64,000 nucleotides of DNA. Source: Pseudomonadota bacterium (GTDB lineage Bacteria; Desulfobacterota; Desulfobacteria; Desulfobacterales; JBDRRP01). This document shows, piece by piece, positions 50,555 through 61,937 of this stretch (its first letter is position 1; each line of letters starts with the position of its first letter). Position numbers and translations under genes: made by a program. Location: assembly GCA_043825735.1 (NCBI GenBank), contig JBDRRP010000093.1, positions 1 through 64,000 of the forward strand. The letters run 5' to 3'. The notes under the pieces were generated by a model that saw only the letters and a list, made by a program, of their open reading frames with translations, had not been told where the DNA came from and ran no database searches.

Positions 50555-50764
50555 GGACCCTCCTTGCCTGGTTTATCGATCCATCGCACCCCTATGGTGT
50601 GGCGGCCGGGTGAGCCGGAAAGGGGACGGTCGATGAAACCATGCTGCCGTAACCGGCAGAGATCGCTGTATACCCTTCACAGCCTGTGAGTTCAAGCAAA
50701 AACAGCCCTTCTTTTCAGGTGACAAACACCTGTCATTCTGAATCGGATGCCGTCAACGATGTCC

Positions 50765-50818
50765 TTGACAGCTTCGGTTGGCTGGCGTAGCGTGGCTGGT
50801 GGTAATACCACCAGCCAC
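50765..50818 (+). promoter_or_regulatory. sigma70 promoter overlapped by a FadR-type operator
   Basis: TTGACA-17bp-TAGCGT; perfect palindrome GTGGCTGGTGGTA-A-TACCACCAGCCAC (50792-50818). Confidence 0.8.
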
Positions 50819-50845
50819 ATTATGCCGAATCCGGAGAATCCACCG

Positions 50846-51574
50846 ATGGCCCGAAATCTTAGTCCGTTGACCGCCGAAAGTCTCAAGGATGCATTCGTGT
50901 CGCGATTCGAACACATGATCCTCTCGGGGGATCTGTCCATCGGCGAAAAACTGCCGGCGGAGCGGGACCTGGCTCAGCAACTTGGCGTCAGCAGGCCGGT
51001 GGTCCATGAAGGGCTTGTGGATCTGGTCGCCAGAGGGCTGCTCACGATCCGGCCGCGGCGCGGGGCCGTTGTCAACGATTTCCGAAAAACCGGATCCCTC
51101 GCCCTGCTCAATTCGCTGGTCAATTACGAAGGCGGCCTCGATCCGTCACTGCTCCAAGGGCTGCTGGACATGCGGGAGCTGATGGAAGGGGAAATCGCCC
51201 GGCTGGCGGCCCGGCACCGCAGCACGGCCCAAGTGGAAATGCTTCAGGCAATCGTCACGTCAGAAGCCGATGCGCTGGAAGATGCGGCCGCCTTCTGCGA
51301 TCTTGATTTCGATTTTCACCACCAGTTGGCCATGGCCTCGGCCAACCCGCTCTACCCGTTGCTGCTCAATTCCTTCCGAAACGTCTACCGTCACCTGACC
51401 AAACGGTTTTTCACCATCGCCGGGTCCGCACGCAGGACCCACCAATTTCACCGGGAGATCGTTGCGGCCATTGCGGCCGGAGAGAAAACCAGGGCCACCG
51501 AGATCATGGGCCGGATGCTCGCCCATGGACGCCGGATGCTGTTGACCGTCATCGAAGAAACTCAGGGAGCTTAG
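50846..51574 (+). CDS. GntR/FadR family transcriptional regulator
   Basis: KLPAERDLAQQLGVSRPVV; FCD domain D..FH..L..AS.N. Confidence 0.93.
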   Translation: MARNLSPLTAESLKDAFVSRFEHMILSGDLSIGEKLPAERDLAQQLGVSRPVVHEGLVDLVARGLLTIRPRRGAVVNDFRKTGSLALLNSLVNYEGGLDPSLLQGLLDMRELMEGEIARLAARHRSTAQVEMLQAIVTSEADALEDAAAFCDLDFDFHHQLAMASANPLYPLLLNSFRNVYRHLTKRFFTIAGSARRTHQFHREIVAAIAAGEKTRATEIMGRMLAHGRRMLLTVIEETQGA

Positions 51575-51577
51575 GCC

Positions 51578-54094
51578 ATGTCTACCGCCGTTGCCGAAAA
51601 GGCCGCTACTGCCGTTCGGACCCCGAAAAACCTGTCACCGCGGATCACCTGGTTGCGGGATTATTATTTCAAAGGAGCCCGGCGTCGGTGGAACAACGAA
51701 TTCACCGCCTGGACCACCGGCACCGACTGGGACGTGGTCTATGACGAGACATCGTTTTTCATCGTGCCGGAGACCTACCCGTTTTTGGCCACGTTCAAGT
51801 CGTCTTTCCGCCAGGCGGCACGACCGATCCCGCTGCCGTCCGATTTCTGGTCACGACCGCTGGCGGAGCGGCGTGCCTGGTTCATCCGGGAGGTGATGGT
51901 CGAGGCGCTGCCCAAAGAAATCTTACCCGGGGATCTCATCGCCGGGGGCCGGTTCAACATTCAGGCTTCCCGGTGCTGGAACGAAACGGAATCGGCGGCG
52001 CGCTCGCGGCGGCTCTACGGCAAAGACGGCGCCGCGGCGGCGATGAAATGGTTCCATGATCATGGTTACGGCAATGCCGGCGCCACCAGCGGGCACCTGA
52101 TTCCCGGCTACCAACGGGTGCTGACCGAAGGCTGGTCGGGTATCCACGCTGATCTGGAAGCCCGCTACAACGCACTGTCGCCGGCTGACCGGGAAAATCC
52201 CCGGGGCGTTCAACTCCGAGCCATGATGATCGCAGCCACCATGCCCCGGGACCTGGCCCGGAAATACGCCGCTCACTGCCGGAAACTGGCGGCAACGGAA
52301 ACCGATCCGGCCCGCTGCGGTGAGTTGTCCCAGATGGCGGCCAATCTGGACAAGGTTCCCTGGGCACCGGCCGAGACGTTCTGGGAGGCGGTCCAGGCCC
52401 TGTGGTTGACCCACATGCTGGTCCTCAGCGACGAGAACTATCCCGGCGCCGGAGTTTCCTTCGGCCGTATGGACCAGTACCTGCTGCCGTATTGGCAACG
52501 ATCCCTGGCCGGCGGCATGGACCGTGATTTCGGCAAAGAGATCCTCAAGTGTTTCTGGATCCACGCCAACACGGCCTACGATGCCATGATCCAAACCGGC
52601 GACCAGGGAATCACGGCCGGATTCGGCCAGTTGATCACCCTTTCGGGCATGGGGGCCGGGGGGCGGGACATGACCAACGATCTGACCTATGCCATCCTCG
52701 AAGTCATCGATGACATGTCGCCTATCTTGGAACCGAAGCCGAATGTCAGACTCCACCGCAACAGCCCTGGCCGACTTTTGAACACCGTTGTGGATATGAT
52801 CGGCACCAGCCAGGGAGCCCCGTTTTTGCTCAACTTTGACGAACGGTCCATGGCCGGTATGATGGTAGAGGCCCGTCGGGCGGGTGTTGAAGACCGGATC
52901 CATAAAGACAATGTCCATGAATACGCCCCGGTGGGATGCCTGGAAAACACCATGGTGGGTAACGACCGCAGCGGCACGGTGGACTGCAATATCAATTTGT
53001 TGAAAGCCGTTGAACTGGCCATCAACAACGGCCGTGACCTGCACGCGTTCACTGATCCCATCACCGGAAAGACCGATCCCGTCAGCCAGGACGGACCGGC
53101 CACCGGATCGGCGGCCGTGCTGGTCACCTGGGAGGATTTCTGGAGGGCATACACCGCCCAGACCGCGCATATCATAAAAAAGTGCGTTGCGCTCTACGAG
53201 ATGTCAGAATCGATCCGGGCCGACTATTGCCCCACCCCCTACCTGTCCTGCCTGGTCCGCGGCTGTGCGGAAAAAGGCCTCGACATCACCCGGGGGGGGC
53301 CGGAACTGAATTTCGTTACCATGGAGGCGGTGACCTTCGCCACCACCGTCGATTCGCTGCTGGCCGTCCGGTATCTTGTCTTCGATCAGAAAGCCTGCAC
53401 CCTGAAAGAATTGGCCGAAGCCTTGAAGGCCAATTGGCAGGGGCATGCAAAGCTGCGGGCCATGGCCATCAACAAAGCCCCCAAATACGGCCGCGACGAC
53501 GATGTCGCCGATGCCATGGCCCGGCAGGTGATGGATGTATGGACAGAGCAGGTCTGGCAGTACCGGACCCTTTCCACCGACCGCCAGTTCCGCCCCGGCA
53601 TGCTCAGTTGGAATTACTGGGTGGGTGACGGGTTTATCCTGCCGGCCAGTCCGGACGGCCGCCTAAAAGGGCAATTTCTCTCCAATGCCATCTGCCCGTC
53701 CAACGGTGCCGACATTCACGGCCCCACCGCCAATACCAACAGCGTAGGAAAGGCCCTCGGCGGCCATGCCGCCGAGGGACAAGGCGACTGGGCCGGATAC
53801 CGCAACTGCCTGCCCAATGGCGCGAGCCACACCATTACTTTCAATCCAGCCATGTTGCGCGACGGTGAACACAAGGCAAAATTTGCGGCCTTTCTCCGGG
53901 GGTATACGGAAAACGGCGGCACTGCCCTGCAGATCAACATGCTCGATCCGGAAACCCTTCGGGCTGCCCAGCGCCACCCCCAGGACTACCGCCATCTGCT
54001 TGTGCGGGTGACCGGATACAACGCCTATTTCACGAGTATCGGAAGGGAACTGCAGGACGAAGTGATCGCGAGAATCAGTCATAATCGATTTTGA
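51578..54094 (+). CDS. Glycyl radical enzyme (PFL superfamily), substrate unknown
   Basis: SFGRMDQYL, thiyl loop VGCLE, PKYG.DD, QIN and glycyl loop LLVRVTGY. Confidence 0.93.
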   Translation: MSTAVAEKAATAVRTPKNLSPRITWLRDYYFKGARRRWNNEFTAWTTGTDWDVVYDETSFFIVPETYPFLATFKSSFRQAARPIPLPSDFWSRPLAERRAWFIREVMVEALPKEILPGDLIAGGRFNIQASRCWNETESAARSRRLYGKDGAAAAMKWFHDHGYGNAGATSGHLIPGYQRVLTEGWSGIHADLEARYNALSPADRENPRGVQLRAMMIAATMPRDLARKYAAHCRKLAATETDPARCGELSQMAANLDKVPWAPAETFWEAVQALWLTHMLVLSDENYPGAGVSFGRMDQYLLPYWQRSLAGGMDRDFGKEILKCFWIHANTAYDAMIQTGDQGITAGFGQLITLSGMGAGGRDMTNDLTYAILEVIDDMSPILEPKPNVRLHRNSPGRLLNTVVDMIGTSQGAPFLLNFDERSMAGMMVEARRAGVEDRIHKDNVHEYAPVGCLENTMVGNDRSGTVDCNINLLKAVELAINNGRDLHAFTDPITGKTDPVSQDGPATGSAAVLVTWEDFWRAYTAQTAHIIKKCVALYEMSESIRADYCPTPYLSCLVRGCAEKGLDITRGGPELNFVTMEAVTFATTVDSLLAVRYLVFDQKACTLKELAEALKANWQGHAKLRAMAINKAPKYGRDDDVADAMARQVMDVWTEQVWQYRTLSTDRQFRPGMLSWNYWVGDGFILPASPDGRLKGQFLSNAICPSNGADIHGPTANTNSVGKALGGHAAEGQGDWAGYRNCLPNGASHTITFNPAMLRDGEHKAKFAAFLRGYTENGGTALQINMLDPETLRAAQRHPQDYRHLLVRVTGYNAYFTSIGRELQDEVIARISHNRF

Positions 54095-54107
54095 ACGGAA
54101 AATAAGC

Positions 54108-55076
54108 ATGACAACCGATCCCGAAAGCCTATTGACCGGCACCGTTCTTGAAATCCAGCGGATGTCTACCGAAGACGGTCCCGGTCTGCGGACAACGGTA
54201 TTTTTCAAGGGCTGCACGCTGCGATGCGACTGGTGTCACAACCCTGAAAGCATTGCCGCCCGGCCGGAACTCCAGTGGGTGGCCGCCCGGTGCATCGGTT
54301 GCCGAACCTGTCTGGAGGTGTGTTCCTGCGACGGGTTGAGCGCCGCCGGCGAGGGCATCGTCATCCACCGGGAACGCTGCACGGGATGCGGCGACTGCGC
54401 ACAGGCCTGCCCGTCCACCGCGCTGGAAATAATGGGCCACCGTTGGGCTGTCAACGATCTGGCCCGGGAGGTGCTCAAGGACCGGGCCTATTTTTTGACG
54501 TCCGGGGGCGGGGTGACGGCCTCTGGCGGGGAGGCCGCCATGCAGGCCGGTTTTGTCGCCGCCTTTCTGGCGGCATGCCGCGGGGCCGGTGTCCATACGG
54601 CCATAGATACCGGCGGACACGTGCAGCCGGAGGCCTACCGGATCCTGCTGCCCCAGTCCGACCTGGTGCTGTTTGATATCAAGATGATGGATGCCGAGGC
54701 CCATCGGTGTCACACGGGTGCCGGTAACCGCCTGATTTTCGAAAACCTACAGGCAGTTGCGACGGCCAAACGGACCACCGCCACACCGTCCCGGATCTGG
54801 ATCCGGACCCCGATAATCCCGGGTGCCACGGACACCGAGGCCAATATCGCCGCTATCGGCCGGTATATCGCCGCCCATCTGCCCGGTGATGTGACGCGCT
54901 GGGAGCTTTGCGCCTTCAACAACCTGTGCCGGGATAAATACCGGCAGCTGGGGCGACCCTGGGCATACGGGGAAACAGCGTTAATACCGGAGGCGCACAT
55001 GGCGGCCCTTGCCGACACCGCCAGAGACAGCGGCGTGGATCCGTCCATTGTGGTGCGCAGCGGCGCAACGCGCTGA
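54108..55076 (+). CDS. Glycyl-radical activating enzyme (radical SAM with ferredoxin insert)
   Basis: DGPGLRTTVFFKGCTLRCDWCHNPE; two CxxCxxCxxxC clusters; SGGE. Confidence 0.95.
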   Translation: MTTDPESLLTGTVLEIQRMSTEDGPGLRTTVFFKGCTLRCDWCHNPESIAARPELQWVAARCIGCRTCLEVCSCDGLSAAGEGIVIHRERCTGCGDCAQACPSTALEIMGHRWAVNDLAREVLKDRAYFLTSGGGVTASGGEAAMQAGFVAAFLAACRGAGVHTAIDTGGHVQPEAYRILLPQSDLVLFDIKMMDAEAHRCHTGAGNRLIFENLQAVATAKRTTATPSRIWIRTPIIPGATDTEANIAAIGRYIAAHLPGDVTRWELCAFNNLCRDKYRQLGRPWAYGETALIPEAHMAALADTARDSGVDPSIVVRSGATR

Positions 55077-55146
55077 CCGCCGGCAAGCCGGAACTTTTCC
55101 CATGAAATCGCGAAGCGCGCGCAGCCATCCGATCAGGAGAAACCGC

Positions 55147-55989
55147 ATGAAAACAGAATTGACCCCGGAAGACATCCGCGCCTTTGAACCCGAGGCCAAG
55201 GTGGGCCTTCTGGCCACCGTCGACCCCCATGGGCTGCCCCACATCACCCTGATCACCTCCCTGCGAGCCAGGACCGCCACGGAATTGATGTGGGGGCAAT
55301 TCAGCGAAGGCAAAAGCAAGCAACATGTCCGGGACAACCCGAAGGTCGGATTCCTGGTCCTGACCCCGGACCGACGGCTGTGGCAAGGCCGGGCCCGGTG
55401 GACCCAAACGGCCCGCTGCGGCCCGGACTTCGAGATCTTCAACAACCTGCCGATGTTCCGTTACAACGCCTACCTGGGAATCCACACCGTTCACCACATG
55501 GCGCTTGTGGACACCACCGGACAACAGCGGCTTCCCATGGCCGCTGTCGTGACGGCCACCGTGCTCACCCGCCTGGCCCGGCTGGCGTCACCGTCCTCTG
55601 GCGGCGGCATCCTGAGCGTCTGGGCCAGGGACCTGTTCAACGACCTGTCGTCCCTGAAATTTCTGGCCTATGTCGATGCCTGCGGTTATCCGCGAATGGT
55701 GCCGCTGATTCAGTGCCAGGCCCGGAGCCGGGACACCCTGGTATTTTCAGCCGCCGCTTTCGGCGCCGAGCTGCGGGCTCTTCGGCAGGGGGTTCCGGTG
55801 GCCGTCTTCGGACTGACCTTGAAAATGGAATCGGTCCTGGTGCGCGGGCCTTTCGGCGGTTTCAGGCCCTCCCTTTTCGGCCGGATGGGAAATATCGGAA
55901 TCAACTGGGTCTACAATTCCATGCCCCCCAAGCAGGGACAAATCTATCCGGCCGTCCCCCTCGAACCGATCGTGTGTTTCGACGACTGA
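55147..55989 (+). CDS. Tandem pyridoxamine 5'-phosphate oxidase-like (FMN-binding split-barrel) protein
   Basis: Two repeats of the LAT/LAYVD..G.P motif; KSKQHVRDNPKV; AGGAG RBS. Confidence 0.75.
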   Translation: MKTELTPEDIRAFEPEAKVGLLATVDPHGLPHITLITSLRARTATELMWGQFSEGKSKQHVRDNPKVGFLVLTPDRRLWQGRARWTQTARCGPDFEIFNNLPMFRYNAYLGIHTVHHMALVDTTGQQRLPMAAVVTATVLTRLARLASPSSGGGILSVWARDLFNDLSSLKFLAYVDACGYPRMVPLIQCQARSRDTLVFSAAAFGAELRALRQGVPVAVFGLTLKMESVLVRGPFGGFRPSLFGRMGNIGINWVYNSMPPKQGQIYPAVPLEPIVCFDD

Positions 55990-56051
55990 TCCGGCGGTCA
56001 CCATTGACCGTGCCGGCGCCTCGCAGCCCTCGGGTTGTTGGCCACCACTGG

Positions 56052-56113
56052 AAAGGCCGCAACCCGTCAGGGTTGCGGCCTTTTTTGTTTAATGGTGGCG
56101 ATGCAGGGAGTTG
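56052..56113. repeat. att-like direct repeat (tRNA-Met 3' end plus terminator)
   Basis: 60/62 identical to 59100-59161 by manual alignment. Confidence 0.93.
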
Positions 56114-56423
56114 GCTGGAATCTTTAACCTACTGAAATCATAAATGGGCACCCTTCGCCGGGTGCCCATATTTCTCAGCATTCTGCAACCTAAGCGCACC
56201 TGTTTGCCGGGTTTTTTCATGCTTTAACTCGTTAGACATTGTGAAAACAGGATGCCTTAGGTATACACTATCATGCAGACGATAATCTCGTCCCCTGGGG
56301 CGAGGTTGGGACATTTTGAACCGAGCCAAAAACTATAATTACAATATGTGGTGCGATGAATGGGGCCTATACCATACATGTAGGCATAACTCTGCCAGGA
56401 TGGCTTGGCAGAGTGAAAACCAC

Positions 56424-56459
56424 TTGACCGCATCCCTGCTGATACTATATTTAGTATCA
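56424..56459 (+). promoter_or_regulatory. TA operon promoter with palindromic operator
   Basis: TTGACC-16bp-TATATT, overlapped by TGATACTA-tatt-TAGTATCA (56440-56459). Confidence 0.7.
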
Positions 56460-56476
56460 CTATTTCTAAAGTTCTC

Positions 56477-56770
56477 ATGGCTAAGGTCGATAAAACATTA
56501 GAGAAGTGGCGGCAAAACACACCGACTGATGTGCCGGTAGACAAGGCTATTGGGATCATTGAGAGGTTTTTCCCCGGACAGTTTCAACAAAATCGCACAT
56601 CTCACATCGTGGTTCAAGATGACCGCCTGAAGGGAATCTATGGTTATGGCCCTGACGGCGATTTCACAGTCCCAGTTTCGGGTGGTCAAAAAGTTAAAGG
56701 CAAGTATCTAAAAAGATTAGCCGAAACAATCAAATACTTAAGTGAGTTAGAGGAGGGCGGGCATGAATAG
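56477..56770 (+). CDS. hicA: HicA-like toxin (dsRBD-fold mRNase)
   Basis: 97 aa; TSH motif equivalent to HicA GSH; FTVP and VKGKYLKRL C-terminal helix; overlaps the hicB start. Confidence 0.75.
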   Translation: MAKVDKTLEKWRQNTPTDVPVDKAIGIIERFFPGQFQQNRTSHIVVQDDRLKGIYGYGPDGDFTVPVSGGQKVKGKYLKRLAETIKYLSELEEGGHE

Positions 56771-57299
56771 AGATCTGGAATTTTATATGAACCTTCCATA
56801 CACAATTGAGTTGGTTCCTATTCCAGAATCTGAAGGCGGAGGATTCACGGCACAGTTGCCAGAAGTCGGGCGCTTATCAATTGTTGCGGATGGTGAAACA
56901 CCAGAGGAGGCTTTGAGCAGTCTAGATCATATTAAGCGAGAGCGCTTTTCTCATTACATTGAAAAGGGGCTCTCTATCCCTCTACCTGCAGAAACATTGG
57001 ATGAATTCAGCGGCCGATTCGTTTTACGAGTTCCCAAAGAATTGCACCGTAAATTAGTAGATGGAGCCAAAAAGAATGGAGCCAGCCTGAACCAATATGT
57101 AAATTACCTTTTGACATCAAATATACAATCAGATCATCACATGAATGAGGTAAACCGGATTGTCGGAAAGCTTGAAAGGATGTGCGAGACATTCCGAGAA
57201 ACTACCTATCATTTCTCTCTTGATATGCAAAACGCCAAAGTCGCAACAGAGCCGCCCTATTATATCACCAAGGGCTTCTCGCTCCCGAAAGCGGCATAG
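56763..57299 (+). CDS. hicB: HicB-like antitoxin with RHH domain and C-terminal extension
   Basis: YMNLPYTIEL, GGFTAQLPE, ADGETPEEAL, IPLP and FSGRFVLRVPKELHRKL..AKKNGASLNQY, plus a ~55-aa tail. Confidence 0.9.
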   Translation: MNRDLEFYMNLPYTIELVPIPESEGGGFTAQLPEVGRLSIVADGETPEEALSSLDHIKRERFSHYIEKGLSIPLPAETLDEFSGRFVLRVPKELHRKLVDGAKKNGASLNQYVNYLLTSNIQSDHHMNEVNRIVGKLERMCETFRETTYHFSLDMQNAKVATEPPYYITKGFSLPKAA

Positions 57300-57308
57300 G
57301 GGGATAAC

Positions 57309-57746
57309 GTGACCAAAAAATATAAAATGCCTCCTGAAGAATATTACGGCATACTACAAGACCTCGAACTGCGCGAAATATATTTGGAGAGATGTAGTAC
57401 TCGGATAGATCGAGAGGTATTTTTAGGCGAAAGCAATATAAAAGTTCAAGTTAGAGATAAGGCAGATTTTAAGATATTGGATGATGGGTTTTCCGTGAGG
57501 CATAAATACGATATTAAAATTGTTCCAGGAGATGAGACCTTGGGGACCGCCTTGACAATATCAGCGACTTTTTGCGCTAATTTTTCTCACCCTGATAAAA
57601 TTGATAATCTCAAAGAATTCTTTACAGTTTTTTCAGATGTAAATTTACCACTGAATACATGGCCATACTTTCGAGAGTTGGCCCAAAGCATGACTCAAAG
57701 GGCCAATGTACCTCCTCTCACTCTCCCTTTCATAAAAAGAAGATAA
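57309..57746 (+). CDS. SecB-like chaperone
   Basis: 145 aa; beta-rich body; C-terminal NTWPYFRELAQSMTQRANVPPLTLP matches the SecB PYxRExxxxxxxRxxxPPLxLP signature. Confidence 0.85.
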   Translation: MTKKYKMPPEEYYGILQDLELREIYLERCSTRIDREVFLGESNIKVQVRDKADFKILDDGFSVRHKYDIKIVPGDETLGTALTISATFCANFSHPDKIDNLKEFFTVFSDVNLPLNTWPYFRELAQSMTQRANVPPLTLPFIKRR

Positions 57747-58088
57747 TATACACCGGAAACCCGAAAAACACCTCAATCGGTTGGTGTCACAAAGGGGCAA
57801 CCAAAACCGGTTGCCCTTATCCTTTCTGATTCTGCAACCTATGCACATCCGTTTCCCTTTTAAGCCTCTATTTATCCTCCTCATTCGAATCGCTCATCTA
57901 CTTGAAATTACTAGTTACAGAAACGAAAATAACTGCAACCATATCCAACTAAAATTATTCGAAAGTTAACCGGACACTACTGTTGCCAAACATATTTTTA
58001 TACGCAACATCACCGCCAGGGACCAAAATCAAGATTGACAAAAAAGTTGTTCACGTTAAGAAATAGCACCATAGGGGCACCGAGACTC

Positions 58089-58841
58089 ATGAAAGAGCGC
58101 ATTGTTTCCCCACAAAACCCACAGGAGGTCTTGACCGAACTAACATGTCCCAACAAAGATGAAATTGATGAGTTCTTAAAGGCCTTCCCCGCAGAAATTC
58201 TTCAGTTTTCAGAGTCTTTCTCAACAGCTTATAAAGGATACTTAGAACTTAACCACACTACTCTTTGCCCATCAAATACAGATGGTGAGATCACCCAAAA
58301 AGATTACGTCACTTTCTTCACATACCAAATTTTAGACAACCTCTTCACATCAACCAAAACGCTTTTGAGTGGATTTCAGACTGCATCCGGCAATCTCTTG
58401 AGGCAGGCTACTGAGGGTATTGCCGTTGTTATCCTATTGTCTTTGGACCATACGATACAGAGAACGGAACGGAGAAAGGGGAAGGAAAAGAAAAAAACTT
58501 TCCATTTCTACCAAAGCTTCAAGAATGAGAAAGCCTATGCTCTTTCACATCTTGCTATTAGACTTCTGCTGGAAAACCAGAAACTTGTTGGAATCACCGA
58601 CTATGGCATTGAAATGCTTGGAATTATAAAAGAATATAGCAACAAGCATAGTCACCCTACATTTTTCAGCACAAGTTCGTTTATTTCCTACGGGATGTCC
58701 GGGAAAATGTACTTGGGTGGAAGCTTTGATAAAGGTAAGATCGATTGGTATAGAAGCGAGCTGCAAGCCAGAATTGGTTTTTGCGACAAATTACCCGCTC
58801 TAATTAGAGGTTTGGTCAAAAAGGTCAGAGACTTACAATAA
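58089..58841 (+). CDS. Hypothetical helical protein, possibly HEPN-like
   Basis: AT-rich ORF; LLRQATE and SNKHSHP motifs. Confidence 0.65.
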   Translation: MKERIVSPQNPQEVLTELTCPNKDEIDEFLKAFPAEILQFSESFSTAYKGYLELNHTTLCPSNTDGEITQKDYVTFFTYQILDNLFTSTKTLLSGFQTASGNLLRQATEGIAVVILLSLDHTIQRTERRKGKEKKKTFHFYQSFKNEKAYALSHLAIRLLLENQKLVGITDYGIEMLGIIKEYSNKHSHPTFFSTSSFISYGMSGKMYLGGSFDKGKIDWYRSELQARIGFCDKLPALIRGLVKKVRDLQ

Positions 58842-58959
58842 TTGTTAACAGCCATGAGACGATACGCCGAGCAGCTGAAAACCTACCTGAAGGAACTGAA
58901 CGCGTAACCGGGAGGTTTGAACCGGTGGTGCGAGAGCCGAGGGCAGGAGACCGAGGAAC

Positions 58960-59090
58960 AATCAAGCATGCCATGGGCCATGACTTTATTCAGATCACCG
59001 TGAATGTTTACGGCCCCCTGCTCCCAGCTGAGAGCAAAGGAGAGGTGAACCGCTCGATGAAGCAACCACCCGCAATCTATCCGCAACCAT
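58960..59090 (+). pseudogene. C-terminal remnant of a tyrosine integrase
   Basis: IKHAMGHDFIQITVNVYGPLLP resembles integrase box II (LGH..I..T...Y); abuts the att repeat. Confidence 0.65.
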
Positions 59091-59140
59091 CACAACAGCA
59101 AAGGCCGCAACCCTTCAGGGTTGCGGCCTTTTTTGGTTAA

Positions 59141-59217
59141 TGGTGGCGATGCAGGGAGTTGAACCCCGGACACTACGGATATGAGCCGTATGCTCTAACC
59201 AACTGAGCTACATCGCC
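59141..59217 (-). tRNA. tRNA-Met (CAT), elongator type
   Basis: Reverse complement GGCGATGTAGCTCAGTTGGTTAGAGCA TACGG CT CAT AT CCGTA ... GGTTCAACTCCCTGCATCGCCACCA. Confidence 0.95.
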
Positions 59218-59324
59218 AGGTTGCCGACCGCGAAATAACCTAGCTGCCAGCGAAAAGGAAAGAGCGTTACTAACAATTGGGCCATTCAAAGTCAAGCCGA
59301 AAGATGCCGCCTGTGGGCGAAACC

Positions 59325-59469
59325 AGTGTCCGTTCACAGGTGGTAGGTTTTAGTCCCCGGCAAGGCTCGAGCGATTTTGCAACCGCAGGCATAGTGGGCC
59401 TATGTCGAGGATTGCAAATGAGCGAGTACGCCGCCGGGGGCTAAAAGATGCCGCCTGTGGGCGGACACT
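59325..59469. repeat. Miniature inverted-repeat element
   Basis: Inverted ends AGTGTCCG..CACAGG ... CCTGTG..CGGACACT; a partial extra end at 59300-59319. Confidence 0.7.
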
Positions 59470-61921
59470 AATTTTGTTCTGCCATGGAGCTGGTCACCTC
59501 AACGGTAAATTCCTCCAGGCTCTCGGGCAGGTTGTTGAAAACGAGCATGAAGGGCACCATCTGTCCTGGAGCGATCCGTGATTTGGCCTGATTCTTGAGC
59601 CGCGCTTTGATCGCATCCAGATCCAGGGCGGCTAAATCCTGATCACTGAGGACATTGCCGGCATATGAGGCCTGCACCTGAGCCATTTTTTTGCCGACGG
59701 TATAGAGCTTTCCCGTGAGGCGAACCTGTAGGCGGCTATCCTCGTAGCCGCTTTTCACTTTACCGGTGATGACGAAAAGTCGGCCGGTGATCGCATTTTC
59801 CACAAACCGGCTGTTCACACCATGGGTGCTCATATTGAGGTTGCCCATGGGATCGGCCGGTGCGGTTTTGAGCAGATCGCTCACAAACGGTATTTCAATG
59901 CCCATGGTGGTCACCGCCATGTAACCGCCATAGGCCAAACCACCGAGAATCAGCAGGAACAGCAGAATTTTAACCGGCGCGCCGATCTTTCCGCCGCCGC
60001 CGCTCTTCTTGGCCTTGACCTTCTTTTCTTTTTTCTTTTTCTTCTTTTTCCCGCCGTCTTCATCGTCGATGTCTGCGACAGCCACCGCAGCGGCACCGGC
60101 CGCCGCGCCAGCGAGGTCATCGAAATCGTCTGCGGTTGGCGGAGATATTTCCACGGTGGCTGCATAATCCAGGTCATCGTCGGCGACGGCTGAAGCGATT
60201 TCATCATCGTCGACGCCAAAATCGAGGTCCATGTCGCCCCCGGCACCACCATCCGCTATCGTGTCGACCTCGAGGGTGTCCATATCGAGGTCGTCCATAT
60301 CACCCATATCCAGGTCAAAATCATCCGAACCATCCGCGTCAACCGGCTGCGGTTCGTCTCCCAGCATGTCTTCAATATCTGAAAGGTCCAGATCTCCTCC
60401 GTCGATTTCCTCGATGGTGTCGATGGCCGCCGATGCGCCACTCGATGCCCGATCCAGATCAAGCTCAAGATCATCCGGGAGATTATCACGATCATCACTA
60501 AAATCGGCGTCCAGCATGTCCTCCAGATCTGACAGATCCAGCTCTTGGCCTGCAGAGGCAGGCGCATGGGCAGCGTTACCGCCAACAGCACCGTCCTGAC
60601 CGGTCACCATCTGTTCGATGTCGGAAAGATCGATATCTGCGCCGCCCAGATCAAGGTCAAGATCCAGATCGTCACCACCGGCTGATTCGGCCTGCGCATC
60701 GTCCATGTCCAGGTCCAGATCCAGGTCGAAATCACCACCGCCGGCTGATTCGGCCGGTGCGTCGTCCATGTCCAGGTCCAGATCCAGGTCGAAATCACCG
60801 CCGCCGGCTGATTCGGCCGGTGCATCGTCCATGTCCAGGTCCAGATCCAGGTCGAAATCACCGCCGCCGGCTGATTCGGCCGGCGCTTCGTCCATGTCCA
60901 GGTCAAGATCCAGATCCAGGTCCAGATCATCACCGCCGCCGGCTGATTCGGCCGGCGCTTCATCCATGTCCAGGTCAAGATCCAGGTCCAAATCATCGCC
61001 ACCGCCGGCAGATTCGGCCGGCGCTTCGCCCATGTCCAGGTCGAAATCCAGGTCGAAATCACCGTCGCCGGCTGATTCGGCCGGCGCGTCGCCCATGTCC
61101 AGGTCAAGATCCAGGTCCAGATCACCGCCGCCGGCTGATTCAGCCGGCGCGTCGCCCATGTCCAGGTCAAGATCCAGATCCAGGTCCAGAGCCTCACCGC
61201 CGCCGGCTGATTCGGCCGGCGCGTCGCCCATGTCCAGGTCCAGATCCAGATCCAGGTCCAGATCAGCGCCTCCTCAGGCTGCTTGGGCCGGCGCGTAGCC
61301 CATGTCAAGGTCAAGATCCAGATCCAGATCATCGCCACCGCCGGCTGATTCGGCCGGCGCGTCGCCCATGTCCAGGTCAAGATCCAGATCCAGGTCCAGA
61401 TCATCGCCACCGGCAGATTCAGCCGGTGTCTCGTCCATATCCAGGTCAAAATTCATATCCAGGTCCAGATCATCCCCGTCGGCAGATTCAGCCGACGCTT
61501 CGCCCATATCCAGGTCCAGATCCAGGTCCAGATCATCGCCACCGGCAGATTCAGCCGGCGTCTCACCTAAATCAAGGTCGAGATCCAGATCCAACTCGTC
61601 ACCGGCAGCTGCAGAACCATCACTGCCGAAATCGAGATCGTCGCCGCCATACGCCAGATCCTGATCCGGGCCATCTACGTCGGAGCCTTCAGGCGTTTCG
61701 GGTGCCTCGACCGGCGCCCGCGTCACGGCCGCCGCTGCAACAGCAGCGGTGGCGACGACTTGAGCGGGTTCAGGGGGTGTCTCCACGGTCGGTTCAGGGG
61801 CAGGTGGGTAGGCAGTGAACACATGCTTGCACTTTGAGCACCGAACCTTGGACCCGGCGGCTTGCAAGAGGTTCTCATTCAAGTTGAATTTGGTCTGACA
61901 CTGCTCGCAGGAAACGATCAT
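59468..61921 (-). CDS. Zinc-ribbon (MJ0042-type) / acidic repeat / TM / DUF3426 protein (ZitP-like), frameshifted near 61270
   Basis: N-terminal CEQC...VRCSKC..VF in ORF 61274-61927; TM and periplasmic domain (LFVITG, PFMLVF) in ORF 59468-61231; the same repeat continues across the break. Confidence 0.85.
60645..61610 (-). repeat. About 14 coding tandem repeats (ESAGGGD-[LD]n-MxxAPA)
   Basis: Units of ~57-66 bp counted from the two translations. Confidence 0.92.
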
Positions 61922-61937
61922 GACCAACCCTCTTCGG

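Follow-up and report, generated by a model that had tools for sequence, protein, structure and literature searches.

Organization of the operon

A window of 64,000 nucleotides (nt) from a genome of the Desulfobacterales (contig JBDRRP010000093.1, positions 1 to 64,000) carries three genes that had been proposed, from the letters alone, to form an operon for a HicA toxin, a HicB antitoxin and a SecB protein, that is, a toxin-antitoxin-chaperone (TAC) system. The follow-up of this original prediction is reported here, with the coordinates of the features collected in Table 1 and with published systems cited from the accessible parts of the respective papers. The three open reading frames (ORFs) were found on the same strand and in the arrangement predicted. 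Their order of toxin, antitoxin and chaperone is that of TAC operons and is kept in the relatives, and their spacing predicts a single transcript. As expected, 9 base pairs (bp) separate hicB from secB, whereas the stop codon of hicA, thought to coincide with the hicB ATG, lies two bases past it, so that the two genes overlap by 8 nt. Purine-rich ribosome-binding sites could be recognised by eye before hicB and secB and none before hicA, a layout that would favour the synthesis of the antitoxin over that of the toxin. The operon had no coverage in two RNA runs from the same study, a result with no bearing on its expression.

A promoter with a palindromic operator had also been predicted. Sites matching the promoter consensus occur around the operon at chance level (6 found versus 4.1 +/- 1.8 in shuffles), and the one listed in Table 1 is the probable promoter of the operon by its consensus match, backed by its overlap with the conserved operator. 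The palindrome is the better evidence of the two. At two or fewer mismatches it is the sole occurrence in the 6.8-Mb genome. At three or fewer, 27 of the 46 related loci examined have it before the toxin gene, usually 27-41 nt ahead of the toxin start, compared to 1 of 920 shuffles. The consensus used in this search was derived from the window itself, and four of the 50 loci were left out for lacking a toxin call or enough upstream DNA. We infer that this recurring palindrome is the binding site of the ribbon-helix-helix (RHH) domain of HicB.

Table 1. Features of the operon, of the islet that carries it and of related loci (aa, amino acids; loci other than the window are given by their handle before the coordinates)
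Feature	Coordinates	Strand	Description
Probable sigma-70-type promoter	56424-56451	+	TTGACC-16-TATATT, 10/12 consensus positions; overlaps conserved operator
Palindromic operator, candidate HicB RHH site	56440-56459	.	Perfect 8+8 arms, 4-nt spacer, over -10 box
hicA-like toxin (ORF1), divergent	56477-56770	+	97 aa; ~12-aa insertion after Ser-His strand; putative catalytic His43
hicB antitoxin (ORF2)	56763-57299	+	178 aa; HicB N-domain, RHH residues 81-117, 58-aa C-terminal extension
HicB tail, residues 121-178	57123-57296	+	Predicted amphipathic helix (~124-145), aromatic-rich segment like a chaperone-addiction (ChAD) sequence, Ala-Ala end
SecB-like chaperone (ORF3)	57309-57746	+	145 aa, GTG start; AlphaFold2 model, Foldseek match to Rv1957
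Terminator-like hairpin behind secB	57793-57818	+	Within 71-nt stretch 70% like 56138-56208
Left direct repeat (att-like), islet border	56043-56113	.	71 nt, 93% identical to 59091-59161; copy of tRNA-Met 3' end and terminator
Terminator-like hairpin in left repeat	56050-56085		
Second islet cargo gene	58089-58841 (open frame from 58035)	+	~250 aa from ATG; separate unit
Intact tRNA-Met with terminator, integration site	59091-59217	-	tRNA 59141-59217 (ARAGORN); right repeat 59091-59161
DUF6941 third genes	L105:1946-2356, L106:1981-2391, L107:1952-2362, L109:936-1373		Behind HicB with 50-55-aa tail
Unassigned third genes behind HicB relatives	L101:2116-2808, L102:2193-2903, L103:380-1096, L108:2086-2541, L088:613-1080		

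The SecB-like chaperone

The match of ORF3 to the Pfam SecB family fell below the cut-off (E 0.13), and the PADLOC model PD-T4-9_C, built for CmdC, recognised it with an E-value of 3e-5. An AlphaFold2 model obtained from 47 sequences reached a predicted local distance difference test (pLDDT) score of 92, and its best Foldseek match was 5mtw, the structure of Rv1957 bound to a ChAD peptide (E 1.6e-8, template modelling (TM) score 0.73), followed by the SecB proteins of Escherichia coli (E 2.5e-7) and H. influenzae. A profile match to Rv1957 was also obtained (E 2e-4). By its predicted structure, ORF3 has the SecB fold of the third gene of a TAC operon, as had been proposed, and the alternative that it lacks this fold was not observed. 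No other SecB-like gene was detected by Pfam or by the family profile in the host genome, which is 100% complete. As a system, the lineage of the operon goes undetected by PADLOC 2.0, and Pfam misses two of its three genes.

The HicB antitoxin and its tail

Residues 81-117 of ORF2 matched Pfam PF05534 (E 9.6e-12), and the family profile of the protein matched the N-domain of E. coli HicB (6hpb, E 1.7e-8) and, also in the PDB, 6u0i and the Arc repressor. The partial RNase H N-domain, the C-terminal RHH and the palindrome at the promoter are those of RHH-class HicB proteins, for which DNA binding is here a prediction. Beyond these domains the protein carries an extra tail, estimated at about 55 residues in the original prediction and found to have 58. 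An aromatic C-terminal extension that is absent from two-component homologues distinguishes TAC antitoxins, and the other HicB proteins of the host have no tail.

The tail contains six aromatic residues, and its ChAD-like segment holds Y149, F151, Y166, Y167 and F172. When the halves of the related tails were compared, the helical hydrophobic moment was higher in the first half than in the second in 47 of 48 tails, whereas aromatics rose from 5% in the first half to 10% in the second, where the share of Pro and Gly was also doubled. As a refinement of the original prediction, the ChAD-like part therefore looks confined to the second half, with the first ~25 residues resembling an amphipathic helix. 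The predicted complex of four SecB chains with HicB residues 121-178 scored 0.00 with an uncertain fold of the partner, a result that weighs neither way.

The end of the tail, KAA, had been likened to an ssrA-type degron. Among 50 antitoxins, counted after an exact duplicate (L013) was dropped, the last-but-one residue was Ala in 44, the terminus was Ala-Ala in 29, and a Tyr lay five residues from the end in 20. In contrast, none of the 50 chaperones or 48 toxins of the same loci ended in Ala-Ala (0/98 control proteins). In the host, clpP and clpX are adjacent genes on contig C61, and the tag encoded by its transfer-messenger RNA (tmRNA) also terminates in Ala-Ala. The likeness to an ssrA degron is thus well founded, degradation by ClpXP itself being predicted. 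Exact mimicry of the host tmRNA tag was considered and rejected, as the HicB of the window matches 2 of its last 10 residues and the best relative 6 of 10.

The HicA-like toxin

The assignment of ORF1 as a HicA is probable and is the weakest of the three, reached by way of its homologues and of a His motif. A profile of its 14 closest homologues aligned with that of 10 shorter syntenic toxins (hhalign 97.3%, E 2e-11) over 76 columns that include the Ser-His motif. Pfam HicA_toxin (PF07927) was matched by 13 of the 50 aligned syntenic toxins, one match being that of P0024, which is 58% identical to ORF1. His43 of the Ser-His motif is present in all 14 closest homologues and in 45 of the 50 toxins, and catalysis by other HicA proteins depends on the His at this position (PMC11594946). 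The model of ORF1 consists of a helix (21-31), three strands (36-38, 43-47 and 62-68) and a second helix (75-94), and its structural neighbours in the ESM Atlas were clusters named HicA, with TM scores of 0.60-0.69, under the naming bar of the tool. Homology to HicA and the conserved toxin His, both foreseen, were in this way recovered from profiles and conservation, without a direct library or Foldseek match.

Relatives of the operon

A search of GTDB genomes with the ORF3 profile returned 60 loci, mostly in records of Desulfobacterota, Ignavibacteria and Chloroflexota. An upstream ORF was obtained at 56 of them (three had none, at or near contig ends, and one was unparsed); it was HicB-like at 51 and, by eye, resembled an MqsA-type antitoxin at two more. 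The HicB tails had a median of 54 aa (range 14-79), and two of the HicB proteins lacked the RHH. When the search was started from HicA instead, 28 metagenome loci were obtained, several being redundant, and 22 carried a SecB-like third gene; of the other six, four were truncated or nearly so at contig ends, one had a short tail and no SecB, and one had another third gene. In contrast, no SecB match was obtained at any of the 30 top-scoring loci for ordinary HicB within the host's class, and in 29 of them the protein ended 19 or fewer residues past the RHH; as the best-scoring loci, these controls lean towards canonical forms. Since the loci are interrelated, all these counts describe one lineage and not independent trials.

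At L052, L056 and L059 the same SecB subfamily stands behind an antitoxin that by eye is either MqsA-like (Cys pairs and a helix-turn-helix (HTH), tailed) or of HTH type. A single clade of chaperones is thus shared by several families of toxin-antitoxin systems. Three further relatives (L025, L069 and L093) have an early stop or a frameshift in hicB or secB, which looks like module decay or assembly error.

Third genes other than secB

A search with the HicB core in 401 genomes of the host's class yielded 18 other loci: six with SecB, four short or broken ones without it, and eight in which a tail of at least 50 aa is followed by a different third gene. At four of these eight, the third gene encodes a DUF6941 protein (E 2e-9 to 2e-5, with three of the matches above the cut-off). 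At L101-L103 it encodes ~235 aa and at L108 there is a 152-aa frame, both without assignment; altogether, the unassigned third genes (three of ~235 aa and two of 152-156 aa, behind tails of 50-115 aa) had no Pfam or NCBIfam match above cut-off. None of the eight tails ends in Ala-Ala. The rule that a long tail always means SecB is ruled out by these loci.

A DUF6941 gene was also observed at L192, behind what looks like a tailed MqsA-type antitoxin, and at L190, whose short contig shows no partner of this kind. The literature searched, outside which most subscription papers lay, made no mention of DUF6941. These loci suggest that the third slot can hold non-SecB proteins and that a non-SecB TAC-like class may exist. 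Going further, the operon may represent an undescribed and widespread lineage of HicA-armed anti-phage TACs in anaerobes, with a two-part tail, formed by a helix and then a ChAD with an ssrA-mimicking end, and an exchangeable sensor slot at the third gene, a proposal that we regard as tentative and rather doubtful. If it were true, DUF6941 and the other non-SecB third proteins would be new kinds of antitoxin-guarding chaperone or phage sensor.

Genomic context

An islet of 3 kb, bordered by direct repeats at tRNA-Met (Table 1), carries the operon. The GC content of the islet is 0.43, compared to 0.575 genome-wide. The ORF list contains no integrase-sized frame within the islet. In a genome of the same genus (G163), the frame next after the same tRNA is one that, from its motifs, we take to be integrase-like. 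Therefore, the site is an integration spot, and the islet is probably a reduced mobile element with which the operon was acquired at tRNA-Met. Among the 60 related loci, seven have tRNA genes. Within the islet, the operon is flanked by two 71-nt stretches (56138-56208 and 57787-57857) that are 70% alike and contain a hairpin each, perhaps as relics of stepwise insertion.

The second cargo gene of the islet had nothing above cut-off in Pfam, NCBIfam or PADLOC. Its feature matches in the ESM Atlas reached 0.93-0.95, with DUF6988 or DUF5677 on 11-16% of cluster members and a HEPN-named cluster under the naming bar. This provides a weak lead to a relationship with DUF6988/DUF5677, and the gene could be a second defence gene.

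In a DNA run that is possibly the source of the window (X1), positions 56058-59129 form a separate contig that ends at the direct repeats. Its depth was 18, compared to 22-29 for the flanks; such depths do not measure copy number, and a joined form was absent from the listing. Both the depth and the contig break are compatible with the presence of strains without the islet.

Two short elements were also noted. One of ~145-170 nt (59300-59470), just upstream of tRNA-Met, has many copies in the genome and its relatives, and a shorter one within the islet (57915-57993) is found again in other genomes, frequently close to the ends of contigs. The two resemble a miniature transposable element and an insertion sequence (IS) end, respectively. 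Beyond tRNA-Met, a long acidic protein with Asp-Leu repeats and an N-terminal Cys-pair motif is encoded on the minus strand (59468-61927) in two frames (61274-61927 and 59468-61231), and this region is 70% alike in G163. Directly to the left of the islet (50747-55989) are genes presumably for a regulator, an 838-aa enzyme that ends in a glycyl-radical-like motif and a radical-SAM-like activase, together with one for a PNPOx-domain protein.

Proposed mechanism and biological role

With a SecB fold, an RHH-type HicB with a tail and the profile evidence for HicA, the predicted identity of the locus was upheld: the operon is a TAC of the HicAB-SecB class, which was already known, and is best explained as a type II toxin-antitoxin module that is addicted to its chaperone. 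The dependence of this particular antitoxin on its chaperone is highly probable, given the characterised systems together with the architecture, the folds, the tail, the degron-like end and the operator. In the mechanism that we propose, a single transcript would yield HicA, HicB and the SecB-like chaperone. HicA would be an mRNA-cutting ribonuclease (RNase) acting through His43, and HicB would mask its active site with the N-domain and repress the promoter at the palindrome with the RHH. The aromatic second half of the tail would make HicB unstable unless held by the chaperone tetramer, and an exposed Ala-Ala end would deliver it to ClpXP. Any other occupant of the chaperone would then free HicA, so that mRNA would be cut and translation would stop.

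The most likely natural trigger would be a newly made phage protein, for which the SecB-like chaperone would be the sensor as originally predicted; it takes about half of our expectation, the rest falling to general protein-folding stress or plain addiction. Several E. coli precedents bear on it: HigC senses lambda gpV (bioRxiv 10.1101/2024.02.24.581848), CmdC senses the T4 capsid (PMC11618068), and MqsRAC inhibits T2, jointly with restriction systems (PMC10783111). A defence role of HicA has been proposed from gene context (Gerdes 2024, PMC10865869). No phage challenge of a HicA-type TAC was found in the same literature search, in which a survey listing this lineage could have been missed. 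On balance, an anti-phage function of the operon is plausible, with the chances for and against it about equal.

Several results weigh against the explanation proposed here. Matches to PADLOC models (E<=1e-15) within 4 kb were found at 19 of 50 loci and at 10 of 32 random stretches (p 0.64). After removal of generic domains from both sets (sigma-54 ATPase, cyclase, the mad3 model and cysteine desulfurase), defence neighbours remained at 15 of 50 loci and 4 of 32 controls (p 0.11). The proteins scanned were 223 around the loci and 124 in the control stretches, which were 32 of 40 random stretches from six genomes, all of the host's class. The viral contigs of IMG/VR contained no HicAB-SecB locus and no relative of ORF1, and two weak SecB-like matches among them lay near neither HicA nor HicB, in contrast to the E. 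coli TACs, which are prophage-linked (bioRxiv 10.1101/2024.02.24.581848). The eight tailed HicB relatives with other third genes have a long tail without SecB. The remaining points concern ORF1, which had no match of its own in library scans of Pfam, NCBIfam or PADLOC; nor did its model give anything in Foldseek at E<=0.001, or its family profile match a HicA by sequence among solved structures. Compared with the HicA reference fold, an alpha-beta-beta-beta-alpha arrangement like that of the double-stranded RNA-binding domain, the model aligned with four solved HicA chains over almost the whole length of these chains, at Z-scores of only 3.6-4.3, within the range of unrelated folds. Finally, the position of His43 is occupied by Glu in four of the 50 syntenic toxins and by Asp in one.

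Of the alternatives, the one that fares best keeps the same TAC mechanism and assigns it to addiction, that is, upkeep of the islet, or to a response to folding stress, with nothing directed against phage; we hold it to be a serious possibility, somewhat short of probable. The compact, AT-richer islet without an integrase between direct repeats and the weak excess of defence neighbours would fit such a role, as would a 2024 review in which phage defence by HicAB lacks experimental validation and no targeted phage is seen for one HicAB carried by a phage (PMC11594946). An anti-phage role is favoured over it by the E. coli TACs, which do defend when challenged with phage, and by restriction-modification or helicase-type neighbours at 10 of 50 loci compared to 0 of 32 stretches (p 0.005, for a class picked post hoc and among related loci).

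A two-component HicAB of the ordinary kind, accompanied by SecB as an accessory, is an unlikely explanation. It would make the tail a folded oligomerisation helix with a constitutive degron and ORF3 a general export chaperone, as might be suggested by the amphipathic first half of 47 of 48 tails, by ORF3 being the only SecB found in the host and by the ability of TAC chaperones to substitute E. coli SecB in export (PMC5105189). It does not agree with the position of the chaperone family, which nearly always comes next after an antitoxin with a tail (HicB at 51 of 56 loci, MqsA-like at two more), with ordinary HicB having neither tail nor SecB, or with the requirement of the Methylomonas HicAB-SecB for its chaperone (PMC5105189). 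That ORF1 is not an active HicA RNase, and the locus an antitoxin-chaperone pair or a regulator, is very improbable in the face of the profile match across the Ser-His columns, the Pfam match of P0024, the HicA-named Atlas neighbours and the invariance of His43 in the closest homologues, even with no direct family or Foldseek match to ORF1 and with another residue in place of the His in 5 of the 50 syntenic proteins.

Comparison with characterised systems

The probably chaperone-addicted HicAB-SecB module described here reveals no new mechanism by itself. Few phage sensors work by a logic that is understood; TAC chaperones belong to these and can be recombined with other toxins, and the present lineage supplies ~50 intact natural variants in which operator and degron are conserved. 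Phage defence by a HicA-type TAC, and by HicAB, thus becomes directly testable.

CmdTAC (PD-T4-9) and HigBAC of E. coli share with the operon a SecB-like chaperone, as seen in the match of ORF3 to PD-T4-9_C, and an aromatic ChAD (PMC11618068; bioRxiv 10.1101/2024.02.24.581848), and the terminal Ala-Ala of CmdA is needed for ClpXP-dependent toxicity (bioRxiv 10.1101/2024.02.24.581848). In contrast, they use an ADP-ribosyltransferase and a HigB RNase as toxins instead of a HicA, with the T4 capsid and lambda gpV as triggers. The HigBA1-Rv1957 TAC of Mycobacterium tuberculosis (PDB 5MTW) contains the best structural match of ORF3 and also has an aliphatic C-terminal degron, but its toxin and antitoxin belong to other families and the chaperones are ~20% identical. 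Two-component hicAB modules of Class 4 (RHH) have the hicA-hicB order, the RHH and a palindromic operator over the promoter (Gerdes 2024, PMC10865869), but neither tail nor chaperone, and the terms 'SecB' and 'chaperone' are absent from the main text of that paper.

The original prediction stated that no HicAB-SecB system had been functionally characterised. This was incorrect, because the system of Methylomonas methanica was tested by Bordes et al. in 2016 (PMC5105189) and found to be chaperone-dependent: when it was cloned in E. coli, the toxin was neutralised only if the chaperone was present, and a 41-aa extension of HicB (residues 119-159) transferred this dependence. RHH-type HicB had already been listed as a class of TAC antitoxin by Sala et al. 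(PMC3581621). The accessible part of the 2016 paper contains no phage challenge of this system. By its description, Mmet-TAC (M. methanica MC09, Metme_2813/2812/2811) resembles the operon in its toxin-antitoxin-chaperone order, with a HicA, an RHH HicB with an extension and a SecB-like third gene. It differs in its 41-aa tail ending in Tyr-Ala, compared to the tail of 58 aa found here, which looks helical in its first half and ends in Ala-Ala. The toxin of the window, moreover, carries an insertion and escapes Pfam, and the relatives of its operon are mostly found in Desulfobacterota, Ignavibacteria and Chloroflexota.

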